Positions 15,010 to 62,814 of a DNA stretch of 64,000 nt are shown here, in pieces (the first letter of the stretch is position 1; each line of letters starts with the position of its first letter). A program made the translations under genes and the position numbers. The notes beneath the pieces were generated by a model. It searched no databases. It was given only the letters and a program-made list of their open reading frames with translations, and was not told the DNA's origin. Where the stretch lies: NCBI GenBank assembly GCA_951406725.2, contig OX597821.1:118172001-118236000 (forward strand), given 5' to 3'. Source of the stretch: Octopus vulgaris (lineage: Eukaryota).

Positions 15010-15978
15010 GAGGTCTGATGAAAAAGTATGATGACTGGTGCTATAAAAAGAAAACTACCACACCTACCAATTCGGTATCTAATCTCCTTAAAGTGGTCCC
15101 CTTATGCAGCATGGTTTCAGATAGCAAGCAGCCACCTCATTGCATTCTCTTGCATTTTCTCAACACTTTGAAATCATTCTCCTTTCAACTGGAATTTGGA
15201 AAGATTCTTGGCTGTAATAACCTTCAAGCCATGTCTCTCTCCCCTGACACACATATTTTCCCTGCCACACTCCACACACTTCACTTCCCAGTACTGCTAT
15301 AAATAACGGAAGTGAGAGAGAACATCTTAACTTACTGTGCATGTGAGACAGAATTCAAGGTCAGTCTGTGCCAAGTGACATCATTCTGCATGCTCCATTA
15401 CCATAGCAACAGCCCTGTATATTTTTTATCAAACCTCAAATATATATATATATAATATGAGGGAATATTATTCCAAACTTACAGGGAAAAATTCAATTTA
15501 GAAATACTAAATCAAATTTCACAAAATATAATATATATATATATATGAATTAGAAAAAAACCCATCTTTTATCAATTCAATAATGAAAAATTAAATTATA
15601 CCATCTAGAAAATTACATATAGAAAGATTAAATATAAGATAAAACATATGTGTAATTTTCTAGATGGTATAATTTAATTTTTCATTATTGAGTTGATAAA
15701 AGGTGTTTTTTCTATTGTGAAAAATTGTAATGTATTTTACCATTACAGTAACACCAGCGCCAACTTGTCCACCTGGACAATTCCGGTGTGACAATGGAGA
15801 ATGCATTAATTACCTGTTGGCTTGTAACAAGAACCCTGACTGCTCGGATCAAACTGATGAACGTCACTGCTGTAAGTATCAACCTCCCTCTCTCTCTCTT
15901 TACTTCTTCTTCTGTCATTATTTTCATATCTACTTCTCTCTTTCTCTCTGTCTCTCTGCCTCCGTCTCTCTCTCTCTT

Positions 15979-21597: not shown

Positions 21598-24500
21598 TAC
21601 TAACACCTAGAATTTCAGTATTTCTGCCACAGAGCTTACATCTACATCATCAATGACCTTAGTGCTTATGCATACTACGCTGCTAACACCACAACCTTAA
21701 CATGCCTAAATGCTTGAATGTTGTCAAGTCGGAAGAGAGATCAGATGAAAAATGCCTAAAAAACGATCACCACCACAATAACCATCTTCTTTTCAGGCGC
21801 TGAATTGCTCCCCTCCCCCCCACATCTCCTTCGCAGTTTTCAGAGTTGGCACTGACAATGTTGGTACATTGAAAGGTAGGTCTAGTGAGATTGTAGAGAT
21901 GCTTGAGAGAAGACAGGTTGATGTATGCTGCATACAAGAGGTAAGATGGAGAGGTGCTTCAGCTAGGGTCCTCACAGGCAAGGCACATAGGTATAAAGTC
22001 TTCTGGCAAGGTAACATGGATGGTGTAGGGGGTGTAGGCATTCTCCTTGCGGAGAAATGGGTGGATAAGGTCATAGAGGTTGTCAAGGTTTGCGATAGAG
22101 TGCTTAAGCTCAGGTTAGTCCTACAGAGTGGCACAGCTACGATTATCTCCGCCTATGCCCCACAAGCGGGACTACCAAATGATCAGAAGGACCAATTTTA
22201 TGATACTCTTCTACAGGCTACCTCAAAGACTAGTGGCAAGGACCTCATCTTTGTGGGTGGAGACTTTAATGGGCATGTCGGGCGGAAATCGGGTATCTTC
22301 ACTGGGGTACACGGTGGCCATGGTATTGGCACCAGAAATGATGAGGGAACTATATTACTGGAATTCTGTGAAGCATGTAACCTTGTAATCTGCAACACTA
22401 ACTTCAGGAAGCCTGACTGCCACCTTATAACCTATCAGTCAGGAGACTCCGCTAGCCAAATAGACTTCATTCTCACCAGACAGCGGGATGCAGGGTCGCT
22501 CTTAAATACAAAGACCCTCCCAGGTGAAGAATGTATCCCTCAGCATAGGCTAATCATCAGTGAATTTAAGCTAGAGGCCAGAAGGACTCCAAGAAACATA
22601 CGAATCCAGAAAAGAAGGATTTGGAGGCTAAAGAACCCTTCACATGGTCAGAGATTTAGGGACATCCTCATCAAGAAATTTGATAAGAGGGAGGAGGAGC
22701 TTCAGACGTCGGACATAGAAGGTAGCTGGGAATTCCTATGGGACAGCTTGCTGAGTGCCACAGACCAAGTCTGTGGATGGTGCAAAGTCCCTTCCAGACC
22801 TAGAGTTACGTGGTGGTGGAATAATGCAGTAGACAAAGCCATTAGTGCAAAGAGACAGGCTTGGAAAGCCTGGAGGGATGGGGGCAGCAGGGAATTGTAC
22901 CAGGTAGCCAAAAGGGAGGCTGGGCAGCAGGTATACATAGCCAAAGATGTAGCAGAAAAGAAGAAGTTTGCCAATGTCCTGCAACGTAAGGACCAAAGAG
23001 CTGAGGTATTTCGGATTGCCAGACAGTGTGTGAGAGAAAATAGTGATGTTACAGGAGAGAAATGTGTCCGCATGGATGATGGGGCACTTGCTTTTAATGT
23101 TGGTGAAAAGAAAGAGGCTTGGAGAAGCCATTATGAAAGACTGCTGAATGAGGAGAATGAATGGGAGGAGGAGAGCCTGCCAAATGTTGACCCAGTAGAG
23201 GGACCAGCTATCCGAATAGACAGCTCCCTTGTAGTTAAGGCAATTAAGGATATGGAAACAGGTAAAGCCCCCAGCCCATCAAAAATCCCTGCTGGGATGC
23301 TTAAAACAGCTGGCTATGTGGGCTATGGCCTAGTCACCTGCATTGTAAACCAGGTAGTTCACAATGGAGTCATACCCAATGACTGGCGTAGCAGCACCAT
23401 AGTCAACTGCTACAAGGGTAAGGGTGATGCTCTAGATAGAAATAACTACAGGGGTATTAAACTGTTGGATCAGGTGATGAAGGTCACAGAGAGGGTCATA
23501 ACCCATCTCATTAGGAAGAGAATTTGCTTAGATGAGATACAGTTCGGTTTTGTGCCGGGTAGAAGCACCACTGATGCTATATTCCTGGTCCGACAACCTA
23601 GCTAAAGATAAACCCCTCTACATAGCTTTTGTGGACTTGGAGAAAGCCTTTGACAGGGTTCCCCGATCCCTTATCTGGTGGTCAATGCGGAAACTGGAAA
23701 TTGACGAATGGCTAATAAGGGCTGTACAGGCTCTATACAGAGAGGCTGTCAGCAAGGTTAGGATTGGCAACAAATATAATGAAGAATGCTGGGTAGAAGT
23801 AGGTGTACACCAAGGCTCAGCCCTCAGTCCCCTTTTATTCATCATAGTCCTCCAGGCACTGTAGGAAAGGTGTAGGTAGAAACTCCATAAGATGCACCCA
23901 ATGTAAGCTATGGATGCATAAGAGGTGCAGCAACATCAAAGGGAAATTAACTGATAAGATAGCTTTCATGTGCGGCAGATGCACAGGGACAATAGACACC
24001 ACAGACACTCAGAAAACAGATTCCATCACACTCCAGGGGGAGAAACTAGAAGTACTTGATAGTTTCCGCTACCTGGGTGACCAAGAGGTGGATGCTCAGA
24101 GAGTATCACCACTAGAATACGAATAGCCTGGGCAAAGTTCAGAAAGCTCCTACCCCTACTGGCGACAAAGGGTCTCTCGCTTAGAGTGAAAGGTAGATTG
24201 TATGATGCATGTGTGCGAACTGCCATGCTTCACGGTAGTGAAACATGGGCTGTGACTGCAGAGGACATGCGTAGACTTGAAAGAAATGAAGCCTGCATGA
24301 TCCGCTGGATCCGTGTAATGTCAGCGTGCACGCACGACAGAGTGTAAGCACCCTGAGAGAAATGCTGGACATAAGAAGCATCAGATGTGGTGTGCAAGAG
24401 CGACGCTTGCGATGGTATGGTCATGTACTGCGGATGGATGAGGAGAGATGTGTGAAGAAGTGCCACTCCCAAACAGTTGAAGGTATCAGGGGGAGAGGTA

Positions 24501-30500: not shown

Positions 30501-31352
30501 GGTCTCGGAGGAGATAGTGTTAGTTGAAGACTACTAAAACCTGCCATACCCAGACAACTTCAGCTTCATATATATAGAGATTATTTAGCATTTTAATGGA
30601 CTAATAGATACATTCCATTATTTAGAGAAAAAGTATTAGATATATAAAAAAATTATAGTGTACTTCCTTCTAAAAGAAATTTAAATATGTTTGCTAAAAA
30701 TTAAAAGATATCAGGTATTTTTATAAAATCGGGTGTGTATTTCTAAGCAATAATTGTAAATAAGGATAACGAGTAATCTCCCTTCATTCATGTGGGTAAA
30801 TTGTTTCTAAGGATATTATTATGATGAAAATTATGATTTCTTTTACTAGAGAAGTTATATTTATAAAATTTGTGGACACACACACACACACACACACACA
30901 TACACACACACATTCATCATCATCATCATCATCGTTTAACGTCGGCTTTCCATGCTGGCATGTGTTGGATGGTTTGACTGAGGACTGGCAAGCCAGGAGG
31001 CTGCACCAGGATCCAATCTGATTTAGTAAGTTTTCAACAGCTGGATGCCTTTCCTAATGCCAACCACTCTGAGAGTGTAGTGGGTGTACTCTTGGAGTGG
31101 TAAATCATAAATCTGAAAGAGGAGCACACTCTACATTATAGAGCAGAAGAGTATATAGATAAAAATAGTTATGGCTGGTCTACAGGATTACCCTGGGTTT
31201 CACATCCATAAAGCGCTGAGCTTTACAGCATTTCTTCAGACCCTAAAATCCATTGGCCTTAAGCCAACAGGTTTTGGGATCTGAAGAAATGCTGTGAAGT
31301 TAAGCTCTTTATGGACATGAAACCCAGGGTAACCCCCAGGGACTAGCCATAT

Positions 31353-31384
<32 letters not shown>

Positions 31385-34300
31385 TTATTTATTTATCAAT
31401 CTATCTATCAATCTATCTATCTAATAACCTATCTATCTATCTCTTTCTCTCTCTTTCTCTCTTTATGTTTGTCTTTTCTCTCACTTTCTCTTTACCACAC
31501 ACACACACACACACACACAAAATGTGTTTTTTTTTCAATTTCCATTGACGAAATCCCACTCACAAGGCTTTGGTCATCCCAGTGCTTTAATAGAAGACAC
31601 TTGCTTGAGGTGCCATACGGAGGGATTGAACCCAAGACGATACAGTTGGGAAGCAAGTTCTTAACCACTCAGTCATACCAGCTCCTTTTATTTTTGGTCT
31701 GTTTGCTACTCAATTCCCGACTCTTTTCCTTCCACTGCACATGAAATTCTTCTTACTTCATTTCCTATTCTCTTACTAATTGCATCTATTTTAATCCTTT
31801 TCTTTTTTCTCTTTCAGTAAATTATATACGTTTTGGTTGTATATTCGAGCTTTATTCGTCTCAGAGCTGAATGGAACCAGTCGAAGAACACTAGATACCG
31901 ATTTGTTTTATCGCGTTTCTTTCTTAGTCGCCTATCCACCTACAGGGTATGTGTCCCCTTCATGTTTTTAAGCACATTTATTCATGCTAGAAAACTGAAT
32001 GCTTGAGACGTGTGTTAAACCCTACAAATTTGTTATGAATCCGTAAGGTTCTGATCAGATCTGTTGACATTGATCTGGTTTTTGCTTTTTAGGAAATTAT
32101 ATCTACTTTCACACAATGAACACTAAAAATCAATAAGTCAGTAAAACTTTGTGTATCATCTAAGACATTCCAAGTATGACCATTCCATCATTCTCCCCCC
32201 CCCCCAGCATTCCCAATGTAGCCTTTCTTTTTCAGAAAGTGGGATGGGATTTGAGGAGGATTTTGATTGTAATTTTTAGCAGGACAGACAACCCTGTACA
32301 AGTCCGTTCATTATAAAACGGCTGATGAACCCTTTTAATACCAACCCGGCTGAAACTACCTCTGGATCTGTAGTACAAATATCTTGCTTTCCTAACTTCT
32401 GAATTAAAATCTTGCACCAAATTTAAGTCAGAATTCATGTTCCTAACATTAGCTTAATGATAACGAAGTTATTTTACCAAATTCTTTGTTATATTTAAAA
32501 TGAATTGAAAGAATCACAGAGCATCTCTTATACAAGAATTTGGTAAGAGAAGGGTCAAATATTGTCAGTCGTTGGGTGCCAGCATGACCATGTGATTGAG
32601 AAGTTTGCTTTGCAGTCAAGGGATTCTGGATGCAATCCTTTTCTGTGGAACCCGGAGCAAATAACTTCTACTATAGACTTTGTGTGAGCCAAACCTTGTC
32701 AATGACACTGGATCGGCAGAAACTATGGGAAAGCTGGAAATAATGAATTATGAAACTCGTTAGCACCTCAGGCGAAATGCTTAGCAGCATAACAGAATTT
32801 CTTCTCACTCTTTACGTTCTGAGTTCAGATCCCATTGAGGTCAGCTTGGCCTTTCATCCTTTCTGGATTAATAAAATAAAGTACCAGTCATATACTGGAG
32901 TCAGTGTGACTGCTCCTCATATCTAAGTTTGAACCCTCCAATCAACTGGCATCCATTTTGGGTTAATAAAATAAAGTAGTGGTCAAGAGCTGGAGCCAAT
33001 GTGACTGACTCCTCATTTCTAAGCCTGAATCCGCCAATGGACTGGCATCCCATTCAGGGGAAATGTTGTGCTCTTGGTCACTTATATGCTATGGAAATTG
33101 CGTAACCAGTCTTATCAGTCGTAGGTTTCAAGAAAATCTTGTTTGAAAAATGCAAGAACTGATCAAAGAGATGATATATATATATATTTCAGGTAACTTT
33201 TAGTGGTACAGTTCTATATTTAAGAGATGAGGAATTATGTATATTATTTACATTATTTACATTTGATGGATATTTGTCCTCATCTTGTTTGTTGTTAACA
33301 CAACATTTCGGCTGATGTACCTTCCAGCTGGATGAGGACAAATATCCATCAAATGTAAATAATGTAACTTTTAGTGGCTGTCCACTCTTTAGCAAGTCCA
33401 GTTCTCTGCTTTGAGAACTTAATACCTCAGTATGCAAGAATTGTAGGTGTTTTCCTCCCTTCTCATCCCCTCTTCAAGAATTCTGGAAACCCTAGAAAAG
33501 CAGTTGACATCACCCTAAAAATTCTGTCATTAATTTTGATACCATTAATAATAATCGGCTTCACCAGAAAGTAAATTATTTATATCTCTTCTGGAAGTGT
33601 GGTGAAGCTGGGGAGGAATATGAAGTCAGTCCTGGCTGCGAATAAATTCAGAAACTGGAGAGTTGGTGCTAAATGTTCAACTGACATCTTCATGCACAAT
33701 GAGTTATAATAGAAGTTTATTGACAGGAAGGGACAGAAACCAGTTCACAGGTTGCAGATCATCCAGTTCTTAGTACCAAGCCCAGGGTACCTAACTCACA
33801 ACAGCCTTGTTCACTTAGCCAGAAAATTTACTGATTAGTTTGTGGTTAGCTCAAAGTACTGAGCTTCAATTTTCCATCATCATCATCATCATCATTATTA
33901 TATTCCTTATTAGGGTGATGAATTAGCAAAATTGTTAGATAATTAGGAAGAATGTCTTGGGATATATGTTCTAGCTTGCTACACTCAGAGTTCCAGAGCC
34001 ACCAAGTTCAACTTTACCTTTCGGTCCCTCTTAGATAGTTAAAAATCAAGTACTGGCATCAATATAGTCTAATAACAGGTGGAGAGCTGGCAGGAAAAGT
34101 ACCAGTTGCATACTGGGGGTCAATCTAATTGACTGCCCCACCTCCCCCAAAATTTCAGGCCTTGTGCCTAGAGTAGAAAAGACTATAATCAACCTGCACC
34201 CTGCCCTTAAAAACGGCTGGTCTTGGACCAACGTTTGAAACTGCTATGCTCATCATTTTCCTTACCATTTTTTTATCAATTTCATTTTCGTTATTCTCTT

Positions 34301-41591: not shown

Positions 41592-41649
<58 letters not shown>

Positions 41650-41885
41650 GTAGTGAAAGAGGGAATGGTGTTTCCATGCACGAAAAAGTATATAGGAAAA
41701 TGTGTTGCTGAAAATGCACTTCAAAAACTCGTGAATGTTTAAAATACATTTATTTACATATGTTGAAACTAGTTTGGTACATATGTAAATAAATGTATTT
41801 TAAACACTCACGAGTTTTTGAAATTTAAGTGCATTTTCAGCAACACATTTTCCTATATATATATGTATATATGTATGTATGTATG

Positions 41886-41958
<73 letters not shown>

Positions 41959-55900: not shown

Positions 55901-58900
55901 GCCGTGTCAAGCCAATGTGACAAAGCAGGCTCATCCAACTAATATCATCTCAGACTTAGCTTCACGTCAGACTGTGGATGGTGGAGAGAACATGCTGAGG
56001 CCTTTGTCCTCCAGTGCTCTGAACGTAGGCAGTTCAATCCTATCCAATCCAAATTAAGGAACAGAAAATAGGCTTTGGATTACCTTAGATTATAAAGGTT
56101 CATTCTTCATTTTTATCTTCTTTCTATTTTCTTTATCTCGTTTTTTCTCTTCTATCAAAACTTTAGAAAACAAATATCGTGACTGTACTGAATCTGAATT
56201 TCGCTGTGACAACCAAAGATGCATCCTAAAGAAGTGGCGATGTAACTTTTATGACGAATGTCGTGATGGATCTGATGAAAATAACTGTGGTAAGTTTTGG
56301 CTTTTATCTTTTTAGTTTTTTTTTTATTAATCTGGAGGAAGGTCAATGGCCATGGATTTCCCAGGCTCTCTAAAACGGATGAGGTCAATACAGTTGTTCC
56401 ACTTGAACAATTGCAGATGGTGGATGAGAAAAATGAAATCTGGAAAGTAAGTGTTCCAGTGAGAAAGGACCGCTTGAAATAACTAGTGTCAAGCATAGGA
56501 TGACCAAAGTAGGAGGAGTGATGAGCAAGGAAGGAGTGTCTTAATAGAGATACTATGCAATCGACCAGATCTGAGGAACAGAGGCCACTGTAGTATTGAT
56601 AGAAAATTTATCACTCTTTGGGCATACCTAGTGGTATGCCCCTTCGTAGCACTGCTAGGCCCAGTATTTCTGGAAGTTATTCATAATAGTCCCTGACTCA
56701 AAAGTCCCCCTGAACAGACCAGCCAGTTTATTCTCTCCAGTTGCTAGGACTTCCCTGATAATGTCACACACTTACCCTCTTATTATCCTCTATATGTTAC
56801 AAAAGCAGACGTTCCAACAGCATTGTTTATCTGAGCAGTGAGTGCCAGATGATAGGTGCCCAATCTTGGAATTTTCTTGATGCTGTACTGCAGCTCCCAA
56901 CTGTAAAATGTGCCTCATAAAAGGAAGACCACACCCACTCATCAACCAGGAAATTACACAAATGGTGCAGCCTCAGCATGTGTCTGCACATTAACAGCCA
57001 CATATGTTGAGCCTGCCTTCCAAAGCAGGAGAGCCCAGGTTGCTGTTTCGCTTTTGCTCAGTGCACAACCCAGCTTGAATTTGATATTTCTTCTAGTGAG
57101 TTTCCTACTTAAAAAATAGTTTTGGTTTACAAACATTTTGGCATAATAAACAGCCTTCAGGAATAAGTGAAATTCATAAACCAAGGTTCCACTGTCTATG
57201 AAGAATTCTTGATTCTCTAATAGTAATGAAGGGCAGGAATAGTTAAATGCACATTAAAATGCCTTTCAGACTTTACATTATGAAAATGCTCATTTCTTTT
57301 ATATAAGTGCTTTCCAAAATAATCTTGTTGCAGGAATTCCAGATGAATTTCTTTAGGATTCTAAGCAGCATCCATCGAAGTAAATTTAATGAAACAAAAG
57401 TTGCTTTAGAGAAAGTATTTATTCACATGATAAACAAAGCAAATAGTAAAATATTGTTTGGAAAATAATGAATACAATTTTTTAAATTTTTATGAAATTT
57501 TATTAAGAAGAACCTTATTTTCTGGCAGCTTAGAATTTGGTCATGGAAAGCCAAGAGTTTTGCGTGAAACTCTGGGACCTAATTTAGGAAGAACTGCTTT
57601 ATATTATGGAAATGTTTGAGAAGGTGTCTGGCTTAATGGCTGACAGTCGTAAGGATGTGAGTTCGATTCCTGGAAGCACATTGCATCCTTGAGCAAAATC
57701 CTTTATTTCTAGTTGCTGCTCCAGTTCACTCAGCTGGCAAAAATGAGTTCTACCTGTAATTCAAAAGGGACAGCCTTGTCACATACATTGCATCATGCTG
57801 AATCTCCCTGAAAACTATGTGAAGGGCATATGTCTCTGTGGAATACTCAGCCACTTGCCTGATAATTTCACAAGCAGACTATTCTCTTGATCAAATCAAC
57901 TTGAATGCTAGTCATCATAACCTATGGAGAGTCAGGCCTTCCAAGGCTAGTAAAATGGTACAGCTTATTCCAATAAACATTTAACTTTCTCGACATTTAC
58001 AAGACATCATTATTATTGTTGGTTGCTGGTTGAGGTGTTAGTACGCTGGGGGCAAACTGCTGAGCATCCTTTTGTCCATCCATGCACTCTGAGTTCCTGT
58101 TCCACTAAGGATAAGTTTATCTTTCATCCTTTGGGGGTCAGTAAAATAAGTACCAGTCATGCACTGGGATTGATGTAATTGACTTACCCCTACCCCCAAA
58201 ATTGCTGGCCTTGTGCCAAAATTTGAAACCATTATTATTGTTCATTATGTTTTTATTTATTATTTGTGTTATTGTTATTTTTCTAGCTTCTATGAAGTGT
58301 TCTGAAGATGAGTTCAAGTGTGATACCGGTCACTGTATTAAAAAATATCTGACCTGTGATGGTTGGAGAAATTGCAGAGATGCTTCAGACGAAAGAAACT
58401 GCACACCCAAATATGGCGACAGATACTGTCCAATTAACAGATTCCAGTGTAACAACACTGTGAGACATTTCCTTTTTTTTTTTCATTTTAAACCAGCCAA
58501 ATCACCAAAGCCAAGTCATCTGAATATTATTGCCATTTTACCTCTCATTGTCGATATGTTGGTTTTGTTGATGTCATAAGAAATCCATACTCTGTTCTCT
58601 ACTCATCATCACACACACATTCTACACATGCAGGCACCATTATACTGACATGCAACATATGTAGCTATATACATTGCTATAATGTTAATACTATTATTGT
58701 GGTTGCCTATTCGTTTCTCATAAGTGGATAGAGTTGGTTCTATTTGTTTGATGTTAGTGATGGTGAGAGTAATGTTTGTGGTGGAAGTAGTCGTAATTTT
58801 CTTGTTAATTTTCTTGTTATTGCAGTTTAGTCACAAGTCAATCTGCAATGAGATCAAAAATATTTCATACAAGGAAATACAATACATTTTCTCGTATGAT

Positions 58901-59301
58901 TTTTTTTTCCATTTTATAGATTGAGAAGCTTATTTTGTTCATATTATTGCTACTGCTGTTGTTGATAATTTAGGGGGGGTATGTGGGTTGGTAGTGGTGC
59001 TTGTTTTTGGTTTTGTTATTGATATTCATGGTACTGATGGTGAAGTCTCATATATATATATATATATATACATTCTTTATTTAAAAGCAGCAGAAATATA
59101 ACAAAAGAGGTTACTCAGAGTTTCACCTTCCCGTTCATCGGACAGTTTTGCTAACAAAACTGTCCGACGAACGGGAAGGTGAAACTCTGCGTAACACCTT
59201 ATGTTATATTTCTGCTGCTTTTAAATAAAGCATATTACTCTACCTCTGGTATTTGAGTACTCTTTTTTCCACCTTGTTTCACATTTATGTGCTTACTCTG
59301 G

Positions 59302-59338
<37 letters not shown>

Positions 59339-60145
59339 GAAGAGAGTATGAAAAGTCTTGAGCCTCGAAAGAAAAAAACAGAACATGGTACAAGACTTCT
59401 GATGATTTATTTTTCAACATAGTCCCTTTCGATGGATGAACACTTTCTCCAGCAGTGCTGAAGCACCGTTATCCCAGCATAGAAGAACTCTTTTGTTTGA
59501 GACTCCAGAAAACTTCCTACAGTGTCTTTGTCACTGGCAAAATGGCGACCAGCCAGGGCTTTTTTCATTTTCGGGAATAGATAAAAGTCTGAGGTGGGGC
59601 TAAGTCTGGTGAATAAGGCAGATGGGGAACAAGCATGTAACCACAATCTTGAATTGTTGCCATGGCAACTACTGAGGTGTGGGCTGAAGCATTGTCGTGA
59701 TGAAAAAAAGGACTCCTCTGGTGAGCATTCTCTGCCTTTTTTCTTTTATTGTTTCTTGGAGGCATTTCAGTAGCTGAGAATAATACAGCCCTGTCAGGGT
59801 GTGACCTGTTTCAAGGTAATTGATCAACAAGACACCTTGAGAATCCAACAAAACGGACGCCTTGACCTTGCCAGTGGCAGGAATGACCCTGGCCTTCTTT
59901 GGGGTAGGAGAATATGTGTACTTCCACTGCTTTGATTGTTCTTTGGTTTCAGGCTGGTATACTAATAACACAAATATATACTAGTAATACATAATGTATT
60001 ACTAGTATATATTTGTGTAGCACACAGTCTTCGCACATGGGTATGTATTCTTATTATACTCCGTTTTGTGTTGGAATAAATAGACATAATAGAATGTCTA
60101 CCGGCTGATGTATGTCATTTTTGTATCCCCTACATTTTTTCTTTG

Positions 60146-60200
<55 letters not shown>

Positions 60201-60814
60201 ATTAGATGTTGTTTTAACCTCATGAAGGGATGGTTTCATCCAAGGAAATACTGATTCAATACCTAGTATTTGGGGGGAATAAATTTCCTTAAAATAATAG
60301 GTGTATATATAAAAACATATAGCTTATATTCATATAAAAGAAGAAAAAGAAAATGGAGTTTCGGAAGTTAATAATTGTTTATTATTAGCAGTAAATTAAT
60401 CATCATTCCTTACAGCTGTTTCAATTAATACTCAGTAAATTTAAGTAAATATTAAATTCATATAATCTGAGAATAATGTCTTCAGAGGTGAAAAATATAC
60501 CCTTGGATGTTTTGTATGTGTTTATGGATTCCCAATATGGTGATGATAGCGAAGGTGGTGGTGGTAGTGAAGGTGGTGGTGGTAGTGATGATGAATACTT
60601 GTAAGAACCATCTTGAATGCTATAATGAATCCATAAACACATATAAAACATCCAAGGGTATATTTTTTCTCTCTGAAGATATTATTTTCATGTCATATAA
60701 ACTTAATGTTTACTTAAAATTTCTGAGTATTAATTGAAACGGCTGTAAGGGATGATGATTAATTTGGTGTTAATAATAAACAAATCTCCATTTTCTCTTT
60801 TTTCTTTTATACAT

Positions 60815-60872
<58 letters not shown>

Positions 60873-61149
60873 ATAGATAGATAGATAGATAGATATGTAT
60901 GTATTTATGTCTGTGTTATATACTTTCATTTATTCAATAAGGTCTGCATTCCTAAACAATGGATGTGTGACAGTGACGATGACTGCGGTGATAAATCAGA
61001 TGAAACACGCGAGGTATGCCTTCAAATTGAGTGTTCAAAAAAAAAGAGAAAATTCCGCTGCAACAATTTATTATGCATTCCAATATGGCGAGTCTGCAAT
61101 GGAAGAGATAATTGTGGAGATGGTTCAGATGAAAATACTCATCACCTTT
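929..61149 (+). CDS. LRP2: LRP2/megalin-like LDL-receptor-related protein, internal part (21 exons; LDL-A cluster III, EGF x2, YWTD propeller, EGF, LDL-A cluster IV); partial at both ends
   Basis: 21 GT-AG exons with compatible phases join into one open frame of about 1172 codons. Module order and diagnostic peptides recall vertebrate megalin as I remember it ([63 protein letters not shown]) rather than LRP1. Confidence 0.9.
2781..3346 (-). mobile_element. Probable solo LTR
   Basis: TGTA...TACA termini with 4-bp direct repeat CATC on both flanks (2777-2780, 3347-3350); TATA-like and AATAAA motifs in order on the minus strand. Confidence 0.65.
3534..3656 (+). CDS. LRP2: LRP2-like exon 2, LDL-A repeat
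   Basis: ttccag|...|gtaag; [41 protein letters not shown]. Confidence 0.92.
4941..5087 (+). CDS. LRP2: LRP2-like exon 3, LDL-A repeat plus start of next
   Basis: ctcccag|...|gtttgt; [49 protein letters not shown]. Confidence 0.9.
5125..5770 (-). mobile_element. Three tandem copies of tRNA-derived SINE family A
   Basis: Repeated aaaggcaaagtc.acctc.gcagaatta.aactca.aatg, the reverse complement of the intact copy at 62815. Confidence 0.8.
5929..6027 (+). CDS. LRP2: LRP2-like exon 4, LDL-A repeat (remainder)
   Basis: tttcag|...|gtaagt; [33 protein letters not shown], last Cys codon split T|GT with exon 5. Confidence 0.9.
6075..6350 (-). mobile_element. tRNA-derived SINE family C (other copies near 470-700, 8230-8560, 48660-48960, 52890-53100, 53360-53560, 55300-55610, 57620-57930, 61450-61705, 62290-62600)
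   Basis: Shared core gctgagtggactggagcaa..tgaaat.aagtgt.ttgctcaagaacacaa and a tRNA-like head with A/B-box-like motifs. Confidence 0.75.
8741..8866 (+). CDS. LRP2: LRP2-like exon 5, LDL-A repeat
   Basis: tttcag|...|gtaag; [41 protein letters not shown]. Confidence 0.92.
8935..9735 (-). mobile_element. RTE-clade LINE fragment (decayed RT region)
   Basis: Minus-strand remnants [26 protein letters not shown] and [16 protein letters not shown], homologous to the 21.8-25 kb copy. Confidence 0.8.
10540..10805 (-). mobile_element. RTE LINE 3' end with (CAT)n tail (similar 3' fragments near 12645-12940, 13200-13570, 28100-28520, 28785-29490, 30915-31090, 38810-39070)
   Basis: (cat)n tttaacgtccgctttccatgctagcatgggttggacg matches the reverse complement of the 24650-25068 3' UTR. 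Confidence 0.8.
10871..11128 (+). CDS. LRP2: LRP2-like exon 6, two LDL-A repeats
   Basis: tttcag|...|gtaag; [85 protein letters not shown]. Confidence 0.92.
11200..11741. mobile_element. Tc1-like MITE interrupted by a Helitron
   Basis: Imperfect TIRs tggtcgtggccaaaagtctggaaca / tgtttcaaacttttgaccatgactg with TA flanks. Confidence 0.6.
11284..11677 (-). mobile_element. Non-autonomous Helitron
   Basis: Minus strand 5'-TC...subterminal hairpin...CTAG-3', inserted between A and T with no TSD; related partial copy at about 30310-30580. Confidence 0.75.
13020..13142 (+). CDS. LRP2: LRP2-like exon 7, LDL-A repeat
   Basis: tttcag|...|gtgagt; [41 protein letters not shown]. Confidence 0.92.
14525..14890 (+). 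mobile_element. Two tandem SINE family A copies (more at 17150-17360, 17678-18345, 20690-21040 minus, 36733-36880, 51372-51595, 52082-52560, 58036-58232)
   Basis: ttctgagttcaaat B-box-like motif followed by ctttgcctttcatccttt.ggggtcgataaattaagtacc core. Confidence 0.8.
15006..15440. mobile_element. Mariner-like MITE between (TA)n tracts
   Basis: Degenerate TIRs gaggtctgatgaaaaagtatg / tatattttttatcaaacctc. Confidence 0.45.
15551..15714. repeat. Foldback inverted repeat, arms about 70 bp
   Basis: cttttatcaattcaataatgaaaaattaaattataccatctagaaaattaca ... tgtaattttctagatggtataatttaatttttcattattgagttgataaaag. Confidence 0.9.
15749..15871 (+). CDS. LRP2: LRP2-like exon 8, last LDL-A repeat of cluster III
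   Basis: ttacag|...|gtaagt; [41 protein letters not shown] (a second in-frame AG lies 9 nt downstream). Confidence 0.88.
17422..17547 (+). CDS. LRP2: LRP2-like exon 9, EGF-like module
   Basis: caacag|...|gtcagt; [42 protein letters not shown]. Confidence 0.9.
18070..18286. mobile_element. Mariner-type MITE inserted in a SINE A copy
   Basis: TIRs tgaggagatgtcgaaaagtttctggcttt / aaagccaggaatttttcagcaccccctca with TA duplication; splits SINE sequence ggggtcaatgta|attgactt. Confidence 0.8.
19904..20200. repeat. Minisatellite, 25-26 bp unit, about 12 copies
   Basis: Unit atgccaggtgctcagaggtgtcttt with variants. Confidence 0.9.
21086..21217 (+). CDS. LRP2: LRP2-like exon 10, calcium-binding EGF module
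   Basis: ttatag|...|gtaaaa; [44 protein letters not shown]. Confidence 0.92.
21790..25068 (+). mobile_element. RTE-clade LINE, near full length but inactivated
   Basis: ORF 21869-23605 has APE endonuclease motifs (CIQEVRW, GDFNGH, SQIDFIL) and RT start ([24 protein letters not shown]). Frameshift near 23600, then [12 protein letters not shown] and [14 protein letters not shown] deletion near 23860 removes the YADD motif. C-terminal RRLRWYGHV and GRGRPRKTW follow, then a 3' UTR ending in (GAT)n. Confidence 0.93.
25100..25610 (-). mobile_element. Decayed Tc1/mariner-superfamily transposase fragment
   Basis: Minus-strand remnants GRPYVW.Q.SAP and DYNVWG; TIR-like caaggtgtttgggctaaattt next to a TA run. 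Confidence 0.55.
26360..26535. repeat. (TATG)n/(TG)n compound microsatellite
   Basis: Directly visible; other simple repeats at 15890-16020, 27650-27950, 39795-39853, 51975-52078, 54890-55110 and many (TA)n tracts. Confidence 0.95.
26619..27141 (-). mobile_element. Non-autonomous Helitron (second family)
   Basis: CTAG at 26619-26622, hairpin cccggcattgcccggg about 10 nt inside, other end reads A|TC on the minus strand, internal (GACA)-type repeat near the 5' end. Confidence 0.75.
27274..27532 (+). CDS. LRP2: LRP2-like exon 11, YWTD beta-propeller start
   Basis: caatag|...|gtaag; [21 protein letters not shown]...[14 protein letters not shown]...FAVDWVGR; phase 1-2. Confidence 0.9.
28701..29642. 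mobile_element. Tigger/pogo-like MITE nested in a SINE B copy and itself carrying an RTE 3' fragment
   Basis: Left end ta|cagtaattttccttggttttcgaac; right ends aaaccgaggtactactg|ta (29561) and gaactgaggttctactg|ta (29642). Confidence 0.55.
31171..31350. ncRNA. Foldback element with two oppositely oriented hammerhead-ribozyme-like motifs (31184-31244 minus, 31276-31336 plus)
   Basis: Minus: agggt CTGAAGA (stem II) GAAAC CCAGG GTA atcct; plus: gggat CTGAAGA (stem II) GAAAC CCAGG GTA acccc. Confidence 0.7.
31818..31946 (+). CDS. LRP2: LRP2-like exon 12, YWTD propeller (degenerate blade)
   Basis: long pyrimidine tract, tttcag|...|gtatgt; [43 protein letters not shown]; phase 2-2 fits both neighbours. 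Confidence 0.85.
33193..33377. repeat. Foldback (37-bp perfect arms) bounded by a 14-bp direct repeat, with a truncated hammerhead-like remnant in the loop
   Basis: Arms 33248-33284 and 33331-33367; gtaacttttagtgg at 33193 and 33364. Confidence 0.8.
34343..34513 (+). CDS. LRP2: LRP2-like exon 13, YWTD propeller
   Basis: tttaaag|...|gtaagt; [57 protein letters not shown]. Confidence 0.9.
34650..36345 (+). mobile_element. 5'-truncated RTE LINE interrupted by a solo LTR
   Basis: [50 protein letters not shown], then 3' UTR ending gttaaacgatgatgatg. Confidence 0.85.
35206..35773 (-). mobile_element. Probable solo LTR inserted in RTE copy
   Basis: TGT...ACA termini, degenerate CTA-containing flanking duplication, RTE sequence resumes on both sides. 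Confidence 0.55.
37188..37411 (+). CDS. LRP2: LRP2-like exon 14, YWTD propeller end
   Basis: ttgtag|...|gttagt; [12 protein letters not shown]...[26 protein letters not shown]...VFHSLRQKQ. Confidence 0.92.
39072..39392. repeat. Minisatellite, 29-bp unit, 11 copies, derived from RTE sequence
   Basis: Unit gtcttggtcatttgtcttgcctccatgag. Confidence 0.92.
39912..40154 (+). CDS. LRP2: LRP2-like exon 15, EGF plus first LDL-A of cluster IV
   Basis: ttacag|...|gtaag; [31 protein letters not shown]...[37 protein letters not shown]. Confidence 0.92.
40230..42650 (-). mobile_element. Internally deleted RTE LINE (EN remnant, RT remnant, 3' UTR) interrupted by a foldback element
   Basis: [23 protein letters not shown] (42377-42643), [12 protein letters not shown]...CSICRKG (41305-41568), FRYLGDQV...RIGWAKFR (41079-41357), (CAT)n tail at about 40230. 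Confidence 0.88.
41691..41857. repeat. Foldback inverted repeat, arms about 72-78 bp, flanked by (TA)n
   Basis: ataggaaaatgtgttgctgaaaatgcactt...tttacatatg / catatgtaaa...aagtgcattttcagcaacacattttcctat. Confidence 0.9.
43173..43216 (-). ncRNA. Minimal hammerhead-ribozyme-like motif (C3U variant)
   Basis: Minus: gggaac TTGAAGA ctgctttaatgcaa GAAA GTATAC TA gtccc; palindromic stem III AGTATACT; lies between (TA)n tracts. Confidence 0.55.
43828..43935 (+). ncRNA. Hammerhead-ribozyme-like motif with long AU-rich stem II
   Basis: ac CTGAAGA ttgactataatt...aattgtagccat GAAAC ATAC GTA gt. Confidence 0.45.
44023..44865 (-). mobile_element. Head-to-tail dimer of non-autonomous Helitrons (44023-44304 and 44305-44865)
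   Basis: Both units start on the plus strand with ctagcagtatcgcccggcgttgctcggg (3' CTAG plus hairpin) and end caacttcacttttatatata..aga (5' TC). Confidence 0.85.
45064..45303 (+). CDS. LRP2: LRP2-like exon 16, two LDL-A repeats
   Basis: ttttag|...|gtgag; [16 protein letters not shown]...[49 protein letters not shown]. Confidence 0.92.
45487..45893 (-). mobile_element. tRNA-derived SINE family B with internal (CA)/(TA) microsatellite (other copies near 12180-12590, 13645-14290, 18370-18705, 28540-29945, 37470-37840, 46755-48460, 50855-51340, 63160-63590)
   Basis: Head gtggctgtgtggtaag...ggttcagtcccactgcgtggcaccttgggcaagtgtcttct; tail gactgaaacaagtaaaagagtaaaa. Confidence 0.8.
46951..48231 (-). 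mobile_element. Tc1/mariner-superfamily transposon with decayed transposase, inserted in the (TA)n of a SINE B copy
   Basis: TIRs cagggtgtagcaggtaaattgagac / gtcccaatttaccagttacaacctg; minus-strand remnants [26 protein letters not shown]. Confidence 0.82.
49189..49314 (+). CDS. LRP2: LRP2-like exon 17, LDL-A repeat
   Basis: atccag|...|gtaagt; [41 protein letters not shown] (absent from the ORF track). Confidence 0.9.
49422..50775. mobile_element. pogo/Tigger-like non-autonomous TIR element
   Basis: ta|ctgtaaaaacccatgtaattt ... aaattacatgggtttttatgg|ta. Confidence 0.7.
51700..51945 (+). CDS. LRP2: LRP2-like exon 18, two LDL-A repeats
   Basis: ttacag|...|gtatga; [81 protein letters not shown]. 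Confidence 0.92.
52595..52838. mobile_element. Tigger-like MITE
   Basis: ta|caggtcatcatcaacttaggac ... gtcataagtcaacgacgacctg|ta; internal gtc.taagt repeats. Confidence 0.72.
56167..56289 (+). CDS. LRP2: LRP2-like exon 19, LDL-A repeat
   Basis: ctttag|...|gtaagt; [40 protein letters not shown]. Confidence 0.92.
58287..58459 (+). CDS. LRP2: LRP2-like exon 20, LDL-A repeat plus half of next
   Basis: ttctag|...|gtgaga; [57 protein letters not shown]; phase 1-0. Confidence 0.9.
59075..59230. ncRNA. Near-perfect 76-bp-arm hairpin with two opposed hammerhead-like motifs (U4C variant)
   Basis: Loop CTAA at 59151-59154; plus arm tgt CCGACGA acgggaaggt GAAAC TCTGC GTA aca; minus arm has CCGATGA...GAAACTCTGAGTA; (TA)n on both sides. 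Confidence 0.55.
59337..59965 (-). mobile_element. Mariner transposase pseudogene (catalytic half plus 3' TIR)
   Basis: [66 protein letters not shown] across three frameshifted ORFs. Confidence 0.9.
60334..60810. ncRNA. Foldback element (arms about 185-200 bp) with two opposed hammerhead-like motifs (60408-60488 minus, 60668-60752 plus)
   Basis: Minus: cct CTGAAGA (long stem II) GAAAC AGCT GTA agg; plus: tctct CTGAAGA (long stem II) GAAAC GGCT GTA aggga; flanked by (TA)n. Confidence 0.7.
60942..61149 (+). CDS. LRP2: LRP2-like exon 21, LDL-A remainder plus next repeat
   Basis: aataag|...|gtaagt; [69 protein letters not shown]; phase 0-1. Confidence 0.9.
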
Positions 61150-62814
61150 GTAAGTTTGGTTTTGTTATTCACCTGTTGCCCCTCACCCTCAGAATTTCTC
61201 TAAAATCAATGAGGCTTTCAATGTGTTGATCATCAGCTCTTGCCCAGTTATAGAAAGCAATTTGTGGCAATGTCTAGTTGTGCTTATTTAGCAAATAACT
61301 TCAATGTGGGACCAGGACAGTTATGCCATGGGAGAATAATTTTGGCCATTCAAGAACCCACTTTTACATTGGCATTTTGTTTATTTCCTGACAGCGTTGT
61401 TGTTCTTGTTGATGATGGTCATGGTGGTGGTGGTGGTGATGAGTACCATCTTGAATTCTAGGGCTTATAGGACCACTTGCCCAATTCCCATGGCGTGTGG
61501 GTGAAGGAGGCCATAGCAGTCCCATCCACCACAATGGGGTGCCGGTCTGTCGTTGCAAGGTTACACATTTTCAGCTGGGTGCACAGAAGCAACAAGAAAT
61601 AAAGTGCTTTGCTCAAGAACCCAACACACCAACAGTTCTAGGAATCAAAGCCACAATCTTGCAGCCCAGAAGACAGCACTCAAACAACTTGGCCATATGC
61701 CTTCCCCTTCACCATTCCCACTTTTCTTCAAAGATGAACAATCAAGCCATTAGATTCCATTTGAATTTACTTCTCTCATATTCAAGCCGTGCCTTCGTGG
61801 TTTGTGTATTCGGTCTATGATCTGTTGACTGGGTTAACTGGAGCCTTTGTTGCCATAACCAGTGGAGTGCCAGTTAGTTTGCATATCCAAGCAGTTCTTT
61901 CCCTGCCGTTCTTTCTTTCACAGACCCAATCAGGATCCTCTCTACACTAATCTAGTGCTACCTTCCTGTCAGCCTTCTTCTTGCACTTTCTCTCCATACT
62001 GGCTCTTTATGGTATCACAATATCAACCAGACTATCAGGTGCTGTTAGACACCACTGGTCACAATGCGCTTCCAGTTCTGTCTTGATGACATTGTTCTTT
62101 TTCACTTTGACCGAAATTGCTTTACTAAATTGTTTACGCATTGTCATGGAGGCCATCCAAGTAGCCTTTTCCGATCTTTTGGATACCACCCGGACTCGCT
62201 CTTCAGATAATTTAAATAGAAATAATCTAAGGGAGATAACTCAAAGTGACCAGTTCCATGTATTTAAACAACATAGACAAATAAAACTGGCAATTCATTG
62301 GTTACAACAACAAGTATTCTGGTTGATCTGATCAATGGAACAGCCTGCTTGTAAAATATATGTAAGTGGCTGAGTACTCCACAGACACGTGCACCTTTGT
62401 TGTAGTTCTCAGGGAGATTCAGTGTAACACAGAATGTGACAAGGCTGGTCTCTTTAATAAAGGTGCAACTCATTTTTACCAGCAGAGTGGACTGGAGTAA
62501 TATGAAATGAAGTGTCTTGCTCAAGGGCATAAGGCATTTCCAGGAATCGAACTTATGTTCAGGATTTAAATATCCCAACCCTGAAGCCATGTGCCTTTAT
62601 GCTACATAAACAACTACAGGTATGTCAAATGCCCTGCAGGATAAATTCTTGGTTTCTTAAAATCATCGCTGCTCCTAGAAGATGTTTAATAGTTACCAAA
62701 CAGCAATGAAGACCAGCTCCACTTAAAAGAGAGGGAGAAAATCACATGATAGTCCATGTCTGTCCTTTCATCTCTGGACAATAAGCTTGTCCTTTTCCTT
62801 AATGGTATGTCTAA

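Follow-up and report, generated by a model that had tools for sequence, protein, structure and literature searches.

A foldback in an octopus LRP-like intron formed by two inverted repeat copies with long-helix-II hammerhead motifs: a probable decayed Penelope-like insertion

The foldback at 60333-60811 of the window (the whole 64-kb stretch of octopus DNA analysed here) consists of two inverted, 5'-truncated copies of a high-copy repeat, each carrying a type I hammerhead core with an unusually long helix II region, and lies in a host-gene intron. We regard it as likely that the locus is a decayed inverted insertion of a Penelope-like element (PLE), and predict no activity of its sense motif in the host. 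Specifically, a single PLE, or a non-coding derivative of it, would have inserted in inverted form into a TA microsatellite and would have decayed since, the arms representing the head-to-head 3' ends of a repeat with a hammerhead motif. The locus itself is an ordinary one, being one of many repeat-made intronic hairpins, and is presumably neutral for its host.

The inverted arms that the sequence-only reading had placed at 60334-60531 and 60627-60810 were recovered by alignment and by folding. Without gaps, the segments 60375-60531 and 60627-60783 are 88% complementary over 157 nt, while the gapped arms (60333-60531 and 60627-60811) are 82% alike over 199 columns, with one 14-nt indel. For the plus strand of 60330-60815 the predicted fold has an energy of -241.9 kcal/mol (z = -24.7), a value reached by none of 100 shuffles. 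The two arms differ by 22 substitutions in addition to the indel and contain 139 adenosines in total, and the mirror peptides that they encode are a by-product of the inversion.

The inverted pairing thus stood, while the extents proposed for the arms had to be revised on both sides. The left, antisense copy (60205-60531, minus strand), which represents the 3' end of the family after 5' truncation, is matched by contig pieces at 60205-60440 and 60304-60531; since the former span the earlier boundary at 60334, the copy extends about 130 nt beyond it, with its 3' terminus intact and reaching the adjoining (TA)n tract. Its homology to the right copy covers 60333-60531. The right, sense copy (60618-60811, plus strand), also 5'-truncated, was delimited by the arm alignment and by contigs carrying family sequence before 60618; it stops ~130 nt short of the family 3' terminus and carries the 14-nt deletion. 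In family coordinates, the inner ends of the arms are at most 13 nt apart. No third copy of the family was detected in the 64-kb window. A side observation on the left copy is that a 9-nt segment just upstream of helix I (60501-60509) is complementary to 60237-60245, near the 3' end, and in the predicted fold this pairing closes a domain of about 270 nt around the hammerhead; it may be due to chance.

The copies are separated by a spacer of GGT/GAT-rich simple sequence outside the family (60532-60617), showing zero contig depth at 60541-60603, where the contig mapping skipped the repeats. The spacer is similar to a downstream intron stretch at 61398-61460 (75% mean column identity). The likeness between 60538-60620 and 61398-61460, the latter in the next intron, includes a common non-repetitive 12-mer in addition to the GGT/GAT richness of both. 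Microsatellites flank both ends of the unit, namely a (TA)n tract on the left (60149-60196) and a (CA)n(TA)n tract on the right (60816-60869), each a likely insertion target; inside such tracts a target-site duplication is unreadable.

The DNA contigs of four runs, bearing four organism labels, were matched to 60205-60812 at 80% likeness, and 2,033, 2,538, 1,748 and 2,312 contigs, respectively, were retrieved, so that all four DNA runs contain the repeat. It is high-copy and dispersed, and is not confined to the octopus LRP intron locus; summed contig depth is no copy number and supports only the statement 'abundant and dispersed'. Contig depth is greatest near the 3' end and declines in the direction of the inner ends. 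In each run, moreover, 28-40 contigs extend before 60618 with one shared family sequence that is absent at the locus. Together these two observations indicate that both copies are 5'-truncated. In each of the four runs depth peaks over the 3'-most part of the left copy (60205-60290), and the predicted cut site is located about 205 nt from the family 3' end. Loose contig ends at 60387 were also observed, corresponding to relatives with the same helix III and a different helix I strand, and several subfamilies therefore exist.

Antisense-to-sense joins of the family account for 5 of the 15 joints listed (of 188 in all) and for the 12 table rows listed (of 89), and among the joins listed they occur at at least 13 distinct break points, with about 1-3 contigs each. 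We read them as head-to-head pairs at other loci, of which a few may be artefacts, a self-complementary reference being able to yield false joints; joints of the 'opposite strands' kind that fell at mirror positions were discarded, being attributed to the presence of two copies in the reference. None of the contigs listed spans the whole unit. Among the 40 of 82 variant rows listed, the arms share one non-majority letter (60472/60686), and nearly every departure from the majority in those rows is confined to a single arm. Finally, in DNA contigs of other copies A>G is about as frequent as T>C, and editing calls therefore need matched DNA.

Each arm contains CTGAAGA followed by GAAAC(A/G)GCTGTA, as had been claimed. 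The left-copy core (60411-60485, minus strand) comprises CUGAAGA at 60485-60479, the helix II region at 60478-60423 and GAAAC-AGCU-GUA at 60422-60411, and the sense-copy core occupies 60673-60747 on the plus strand, with a decayed helix II. The cores point outward and lie 188 nt apart. Both copies present the CUGANGA, GAAA and NUH elements in type I order, with GUA as the cleavage triplet; the catalytic letters are intact in both, an observation that counts against decay. The predicted cut after A60747 also agrees with the earlier proposal, leaving 194 nt to the exon that begins at 60942.

Helices I and III are short. Helix I has the expected 3-5 bp, that is, 5 bp in the sense copy (two of them G-U) and 3 bp in the left copy, where two helix I positions that depart from the family majority explain the shorter helix (60489, with the majority letter in 56-78% of contig depth, and 60407, in 76-86%); the family majority letters strengthen helix I. 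Helix III is a 4-bp zero-loop palindrome, for which an 8-bp self-duplex is possible (-11.1 and -9.7 kcal/mol). Helix II lacks the G10.1-C11.1 pair at its base, which is replaced by U/U (sense copy) or C/U, followed by A-U; U/U is frequent among the Hydra-clade rows of PMC8557442 and is described as the best tolerated mismatch (PMC3088659). An Rfam search of the whole window at the gathering score returned no hits, and extending it to E 10 at the locus yielded six weak snoRNA hits far below the cutoffs, none of them a hammerhead. A strict core scan of both strands of the 64 kb found only three motifs, all within foldbacks.

A distinctive trait of the motif is its helix II region, which measures 56 nt in both arms. 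The stem of about 55 nt in the sequence-only reading was thus correct in length, and as a folding helix it is supported in the minus copy and not in the sense copy: in the left copy it forms 19 bp with a 6-nt bulge at -7.2 kcal/mol, a value matched by 23 of 500 mononucleotide shuffles, while the sense copy reaches -2.7 kcal/mol and 325 of 500 such shuffles do as well. The view that this stem is unusually long for minimal Penelope-type hammerheads is supported by the 44 animal rows compared from Fig. S3 of PMC4209133, in which the corresponding region spans 11-23 nt; compared with these published animal PLE hammerheads, that of the octopus repeat is 2-5 times longer. In the Hydra clade the helix II regions given in File S2 of PMC8557442 reach 26 nt. 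Given the norm of about 4-8 bp with a small loop, the motif was classed as a variant of the PLE-type minimal hammerhead.

The long helix II is a trait of the family. The majority letter at 60686, 60687, 60691 and 60702 is carried by 24-53 contigs per run, and none of the joints listed skips the helix II interior; contig depth dips inside helix II, so that subfamilies with other interiors are possible. Of the 19 left-copy pairs, which are 19/19 by construction as they were derived from its own fold, 15 are kept in the sense copy and four are broken, none being compensated. Six helix II pairs differ between the arms and none is altered on both sides. At 60691, 60702 and 60722 the sense copy breaks pairs for which 83-98% of contig depth has the pairing letter; for the fourth broken pair the majority letter is ambiguous. 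A variant at 60718 (48-69%), in an A run, may belong at 60719 and was left uncounted. Among the 40 of 82 variant rows listed, and in unphased contigs, pairing is preserved by the variants that the family shows at 60435, 60441 and 60459, with possible covariation between 60437 and 60459. The openly accessible papers surveyed gave no description of such a long-helix-II PLE family. We lean, with less assurance than for the origin of the locus, towards a PLE hammerhead family not described before, whose 56-nt helix II region goes undetected by the Rfam models.

The host intron extends from 58460 to 60941 on the plus strand (GT at 58460, AG at 60940-60941) and splits one LDLa repeat. The next exon (60942-61149, plus strand, its 3' end read from the sequence) encodes LDLa repeats (PF00057, E 8.9e-18). 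As the host exons give LDLa, LDLb and EGF-type Pfam hits, and LRP2 is the best PDB match of one exon, the host is a plus-strand gene like LRP1/LRP2 (megalin). The sequence-only reading had tied the hammerhead pair to the downstream exon. This link was not supported, inasmuch as the arrangement is the usual one for a high-copy repeat inserted head-to-head, the sense core has decayed and is expected from the fold to be sequestered, and similar foldbacks are found elsewhere in the window.

The predicted sequestration emerges from the computed ensemble energies, namely -246.9 kcal/mol for the free foldback and -161.8 kcal/mol with the sense core kept open. Opening this core would cost 85 kcal/mol in the foldback, compared to 9.5 kcal/mol in an isolated 101-nt segment, where both values leave tertiary and dimer contributions out of account and have no calibration against an active ribozyme. 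The left arm would be transcribed first and would pair with the right arm upon its emergence. In addition, the short palindromic helix III would require a second, like-stranded copy, and the window contains no like-stranded family copy that could act as dimer partner; the core at 59164-59193 has, by inspection, a different palindrome. In published work, a PLE minimal hammerhead failed to cleave as a monomer (PMC4209133) and an anole PLE hammerhead cleaved only with its protein (PMC11167929). On these models, no activity of the sense motif is expected in the host pre-mRNA, and cleavage of the LRP pre-mRNA appears unlikely.

By analogy, the duplex of about 190 bp is a plausible A-to-I editing substrate, as inverted repeats generically are. 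Long inverted-repeat duplexes are described as the main ADAR targets across animals (PMC5625713), with Penelope heavily edited in lizard (PMC5625713), and editing of intronic repeats is reported to be frequent in cephalopods (PMC9068888). Any ADAR editing would then be generic inverted-repeat editing and would not single out the hairpin at 60333-60811. The intronic inverted-repeat substrates of PMC5625713 likewise form a long, near-perfect duplex from neighbouring inverted copies.

Among known systems, the octopus motifs resemble the minimal type I hammerheads in the pseudo-LTRs of animal PLEs as presented in PMC4209133. Common features are CUGANGA plus one extra nucleotide, GAAA, a palindromic helix III, a helix I of 3-5 bp, a U-rich 5' flank, dispersed truncated copies and opposite-strand pairs 100-700 bp apart; the differences lie in the 56-nt helix II region, compared to 11-23 nt, and in the missing G10.1-C11.1 pair. 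By motif, the closest look-alikes are the Hydra-clade hammerheads of PMC8557442. Most Hydra magnipapillata rows of its File S2 have, as the family does, a U after CUGANGA and a U before GAA; Penelope-1_NV has the same ACAG/CUGU helix III and UCCC/GGGA helix I; Hydra-clade PLEs use (TA)n targets, the likely target of the octopus copies too, and carry the motif 100-200 nt from the 3' end; and Penelope-13_HM, like the octopus locus, has an inverted 5'-truncated copy with one motif per strand. In contrast, Hydra-clade helix II regions are of at most 26 nt rather than 56, and the sequence of Hydra-1_oBim differs from that of the family (PMC8557442). As there is no ORF at the locus, the clade was left unassigned.

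Helix II regions of comparable length, about 54 and 48 nt by our own counts in File S2 of PMC8557442, belong to Selaginella PLE-X1 and are flagged there as non-canonical. Unlike the octopus family, those two elements are from a plant, endonuclease-less and specific for 28S rDNA, with mostly a large loop rather than a second helix. Non-LTR retrozymes, as outlined in 10.64898/2026.07.22.740005, are similarly non-coding, PLE-derived units with a type I hammerhead and monomers that are often intronic; they are arranged as head-to-tail tandem units, whereas the octopus locus has two inverted, head-to-head copies.

The Naiad clade was considered and found no support: the three octopus Naiad 3' ends compared are unlike the family sequence. 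Six family motifs had zero occurrences in the Naiad, Chlamys and Hydra consensus files, in which line breaks could hide a match, and other short family motifs gave only scattered short hits in unrelated sequence there, none of them credible. Naiad elements have an N-terminal GIY-YIG with a CxC linker and lack a canonical hammerhead. A core scan with a 40-70-nt gap retrieved 12 viral loci, 54 prokaryotic loci and one metagenome locus, all unlike the family beyond the motif; only 3 of the 67 have a helix I of at least 3 bp and the two best look coding, so that we attribute them to chance. The same scan with a 10-40-nt gap found no viral loci.

The assignment to PLEs rests on anatomy, as no PLE protein was seen. 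Scanning 22 of the 54 long frames of the window, together with two exons, revealed no PLE RT/GIY-YIG frame; apart from LRP domains, the scan returned a single LINE-type endonuclease and RT, its other hits being too weak to pass the cutoff. A LINE-type remnant at 21782-23864 (plus strand) comprises a 607-aa frame with an AP-endonuclease domain and then an RT fragment in another frame. The published anatomy of PLE insertions is consistent with the assignment: PMC8557442 describes insertions whose 5' end carries a 5'-truncated copy in inverted orientation, together with a preference for (TA)n, head-to-head is given as the commonest PLE arrangement (PMC3846280), and in Schistosoma minimal hammerhead pairs occur on opposite strands, 100-700 bp apart, mostly in truncated PLEs (PMC4209133). 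Two details speak against the PLE insertion reading, namely the 86-nt simple-sequence spacer, compared to the 'immediately adjacent' published inverted copies, and the difference of about 130 nt between the 3' ends, which exceeds the described 30-40-nt tail.

The spacer bears on the question of whether one event produced both copies. Two independent insertions of a PLE-derived non-autonomous family (retrozyme-like or solo pLTR), or a later local inverted duplication, would account for an 86-nt unrelated spacer resembling 61398-61460, for arms differing at 22 positions and by a 14-nt indel, and for listed non-majority letters that are nearly all private to one arm, in a family that is abundant; judged from the 22 substitutions and the one common non-majority letter among the rows listed, two separate insertions would also fit. 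We nonetheless hold this to be an unlikely history. The inner ends coincide to within 13 nt in family coordinates, just two family copies are present in 64 kb, and the non-majority letter at 60472/60686 is common to both arms. Moreover, the at least 13 other head-to-head joins and the two further paired-core foldbacks of the window point to a mechanism, and the locus has no tandem unit of the kind found in retrozymes (10.64898/2026.07.22.740005). A MITE or foldback DNA transposon, with long terminal inverted repeats that resemble hammerheads by chance, would explain the inverted arms of about 190 nt around a short spacer and the TA-rich flanks. It scarcely accounts for the asymmetric outer ends (the left copy being ~130 nt longer), for family sequence continuing past the inner ends with joins that vary at other loci, or for a unit spanned by none of the contigs listed. 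The full core with helix I and palindrome, in a window where only three strict motifs occur, all foldback-borne, argues against chance resemblance, and the contigs suggest that family copies may be mostly single and 5'-truncated, which would not fit either; we give this origin hardly any credence.

Under co-option by the host, the sense hammerhead would cleave the intron ahead of the branch point and would be gated by the antisense arm together with A-to-I editing, which would tune splicing of the next exon. An intact sense-strand core with a 5-bp helix I, the 139 adenosines of the arms, a cut site 194 nt from the exon and the common editing of intronic repeats in cephalopods and other animals (PMC9068888, PMC5625713) are in keeping with such a role. 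We find it very improbable, considering that the sense helix II is no stabler than its shuffles, that 4 of its 19 pairs are broken with no compensating change, that 85 kcal/mol would be needed to free the core, and that a 4-bp zero-loop palindromic helix III has no like-stranded partner in the window. The window contains 14 inverted pairs of at least 100 nt, so that nearness to an exon requires no special cause. A further scheme, in which ADAR editing would loosen the duplex and free the sense hammerhead, the cut then coupling editing level to splicing, is slightly less credible still; helix II decay in the sense copy and the missing dimer partner argue against such an editing-gated ribozyme.

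The foldback at 60333-60811 is one of several comparable structures in the window. The 14 inverted pairs mentioned above have at least 75% identity and arms within 5 kb of each other, and two further foldbacks of the window carry paired cores. In the foldback at 31152-31367, arranged head-to-head, each arm bears a full core (31239-31189, minus strand; 31281-31331, plus strand) with a 31-nt helix II region (-8.8 and -6.7 kcal/mol); it belongs to a different family. The near-perfect foldback at 59072-59233 (91%), in the same intron as that at 60333-60811 and adjoining (TA)n, bears a variant CCGANGA core per arm (59141-59112, minus strand; 59164-59193, plus strand). A foldback at 33248-33367 contains, by eye, a further hammerhead repeat with a short helix II, of which the 3' half is present in decayed form. 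Two more, at 41597-41951 and 15551-15714, lie beside (TA)n and lack a clear hammerhead core; both might be inverted insertions in which truncation reached closer to the 3' end.

In conclusion, the family is of modest importance and the locus of little. Recurring paired-core foldbacks provide a simple signature for inverted PLE insertions. The bare-core search of Craig et al., as described in PMC8557442, used a 7-17-nt spacer, and a helix II region of 56 nt, missed by Rfam, falls beyond it, so that Penelope hammerheads may be undercounted. The eight Naiad 'half cores' 35-50 nt apart that the same authors flagged (PMC8557442) could be re-read with a long helix II in mind.
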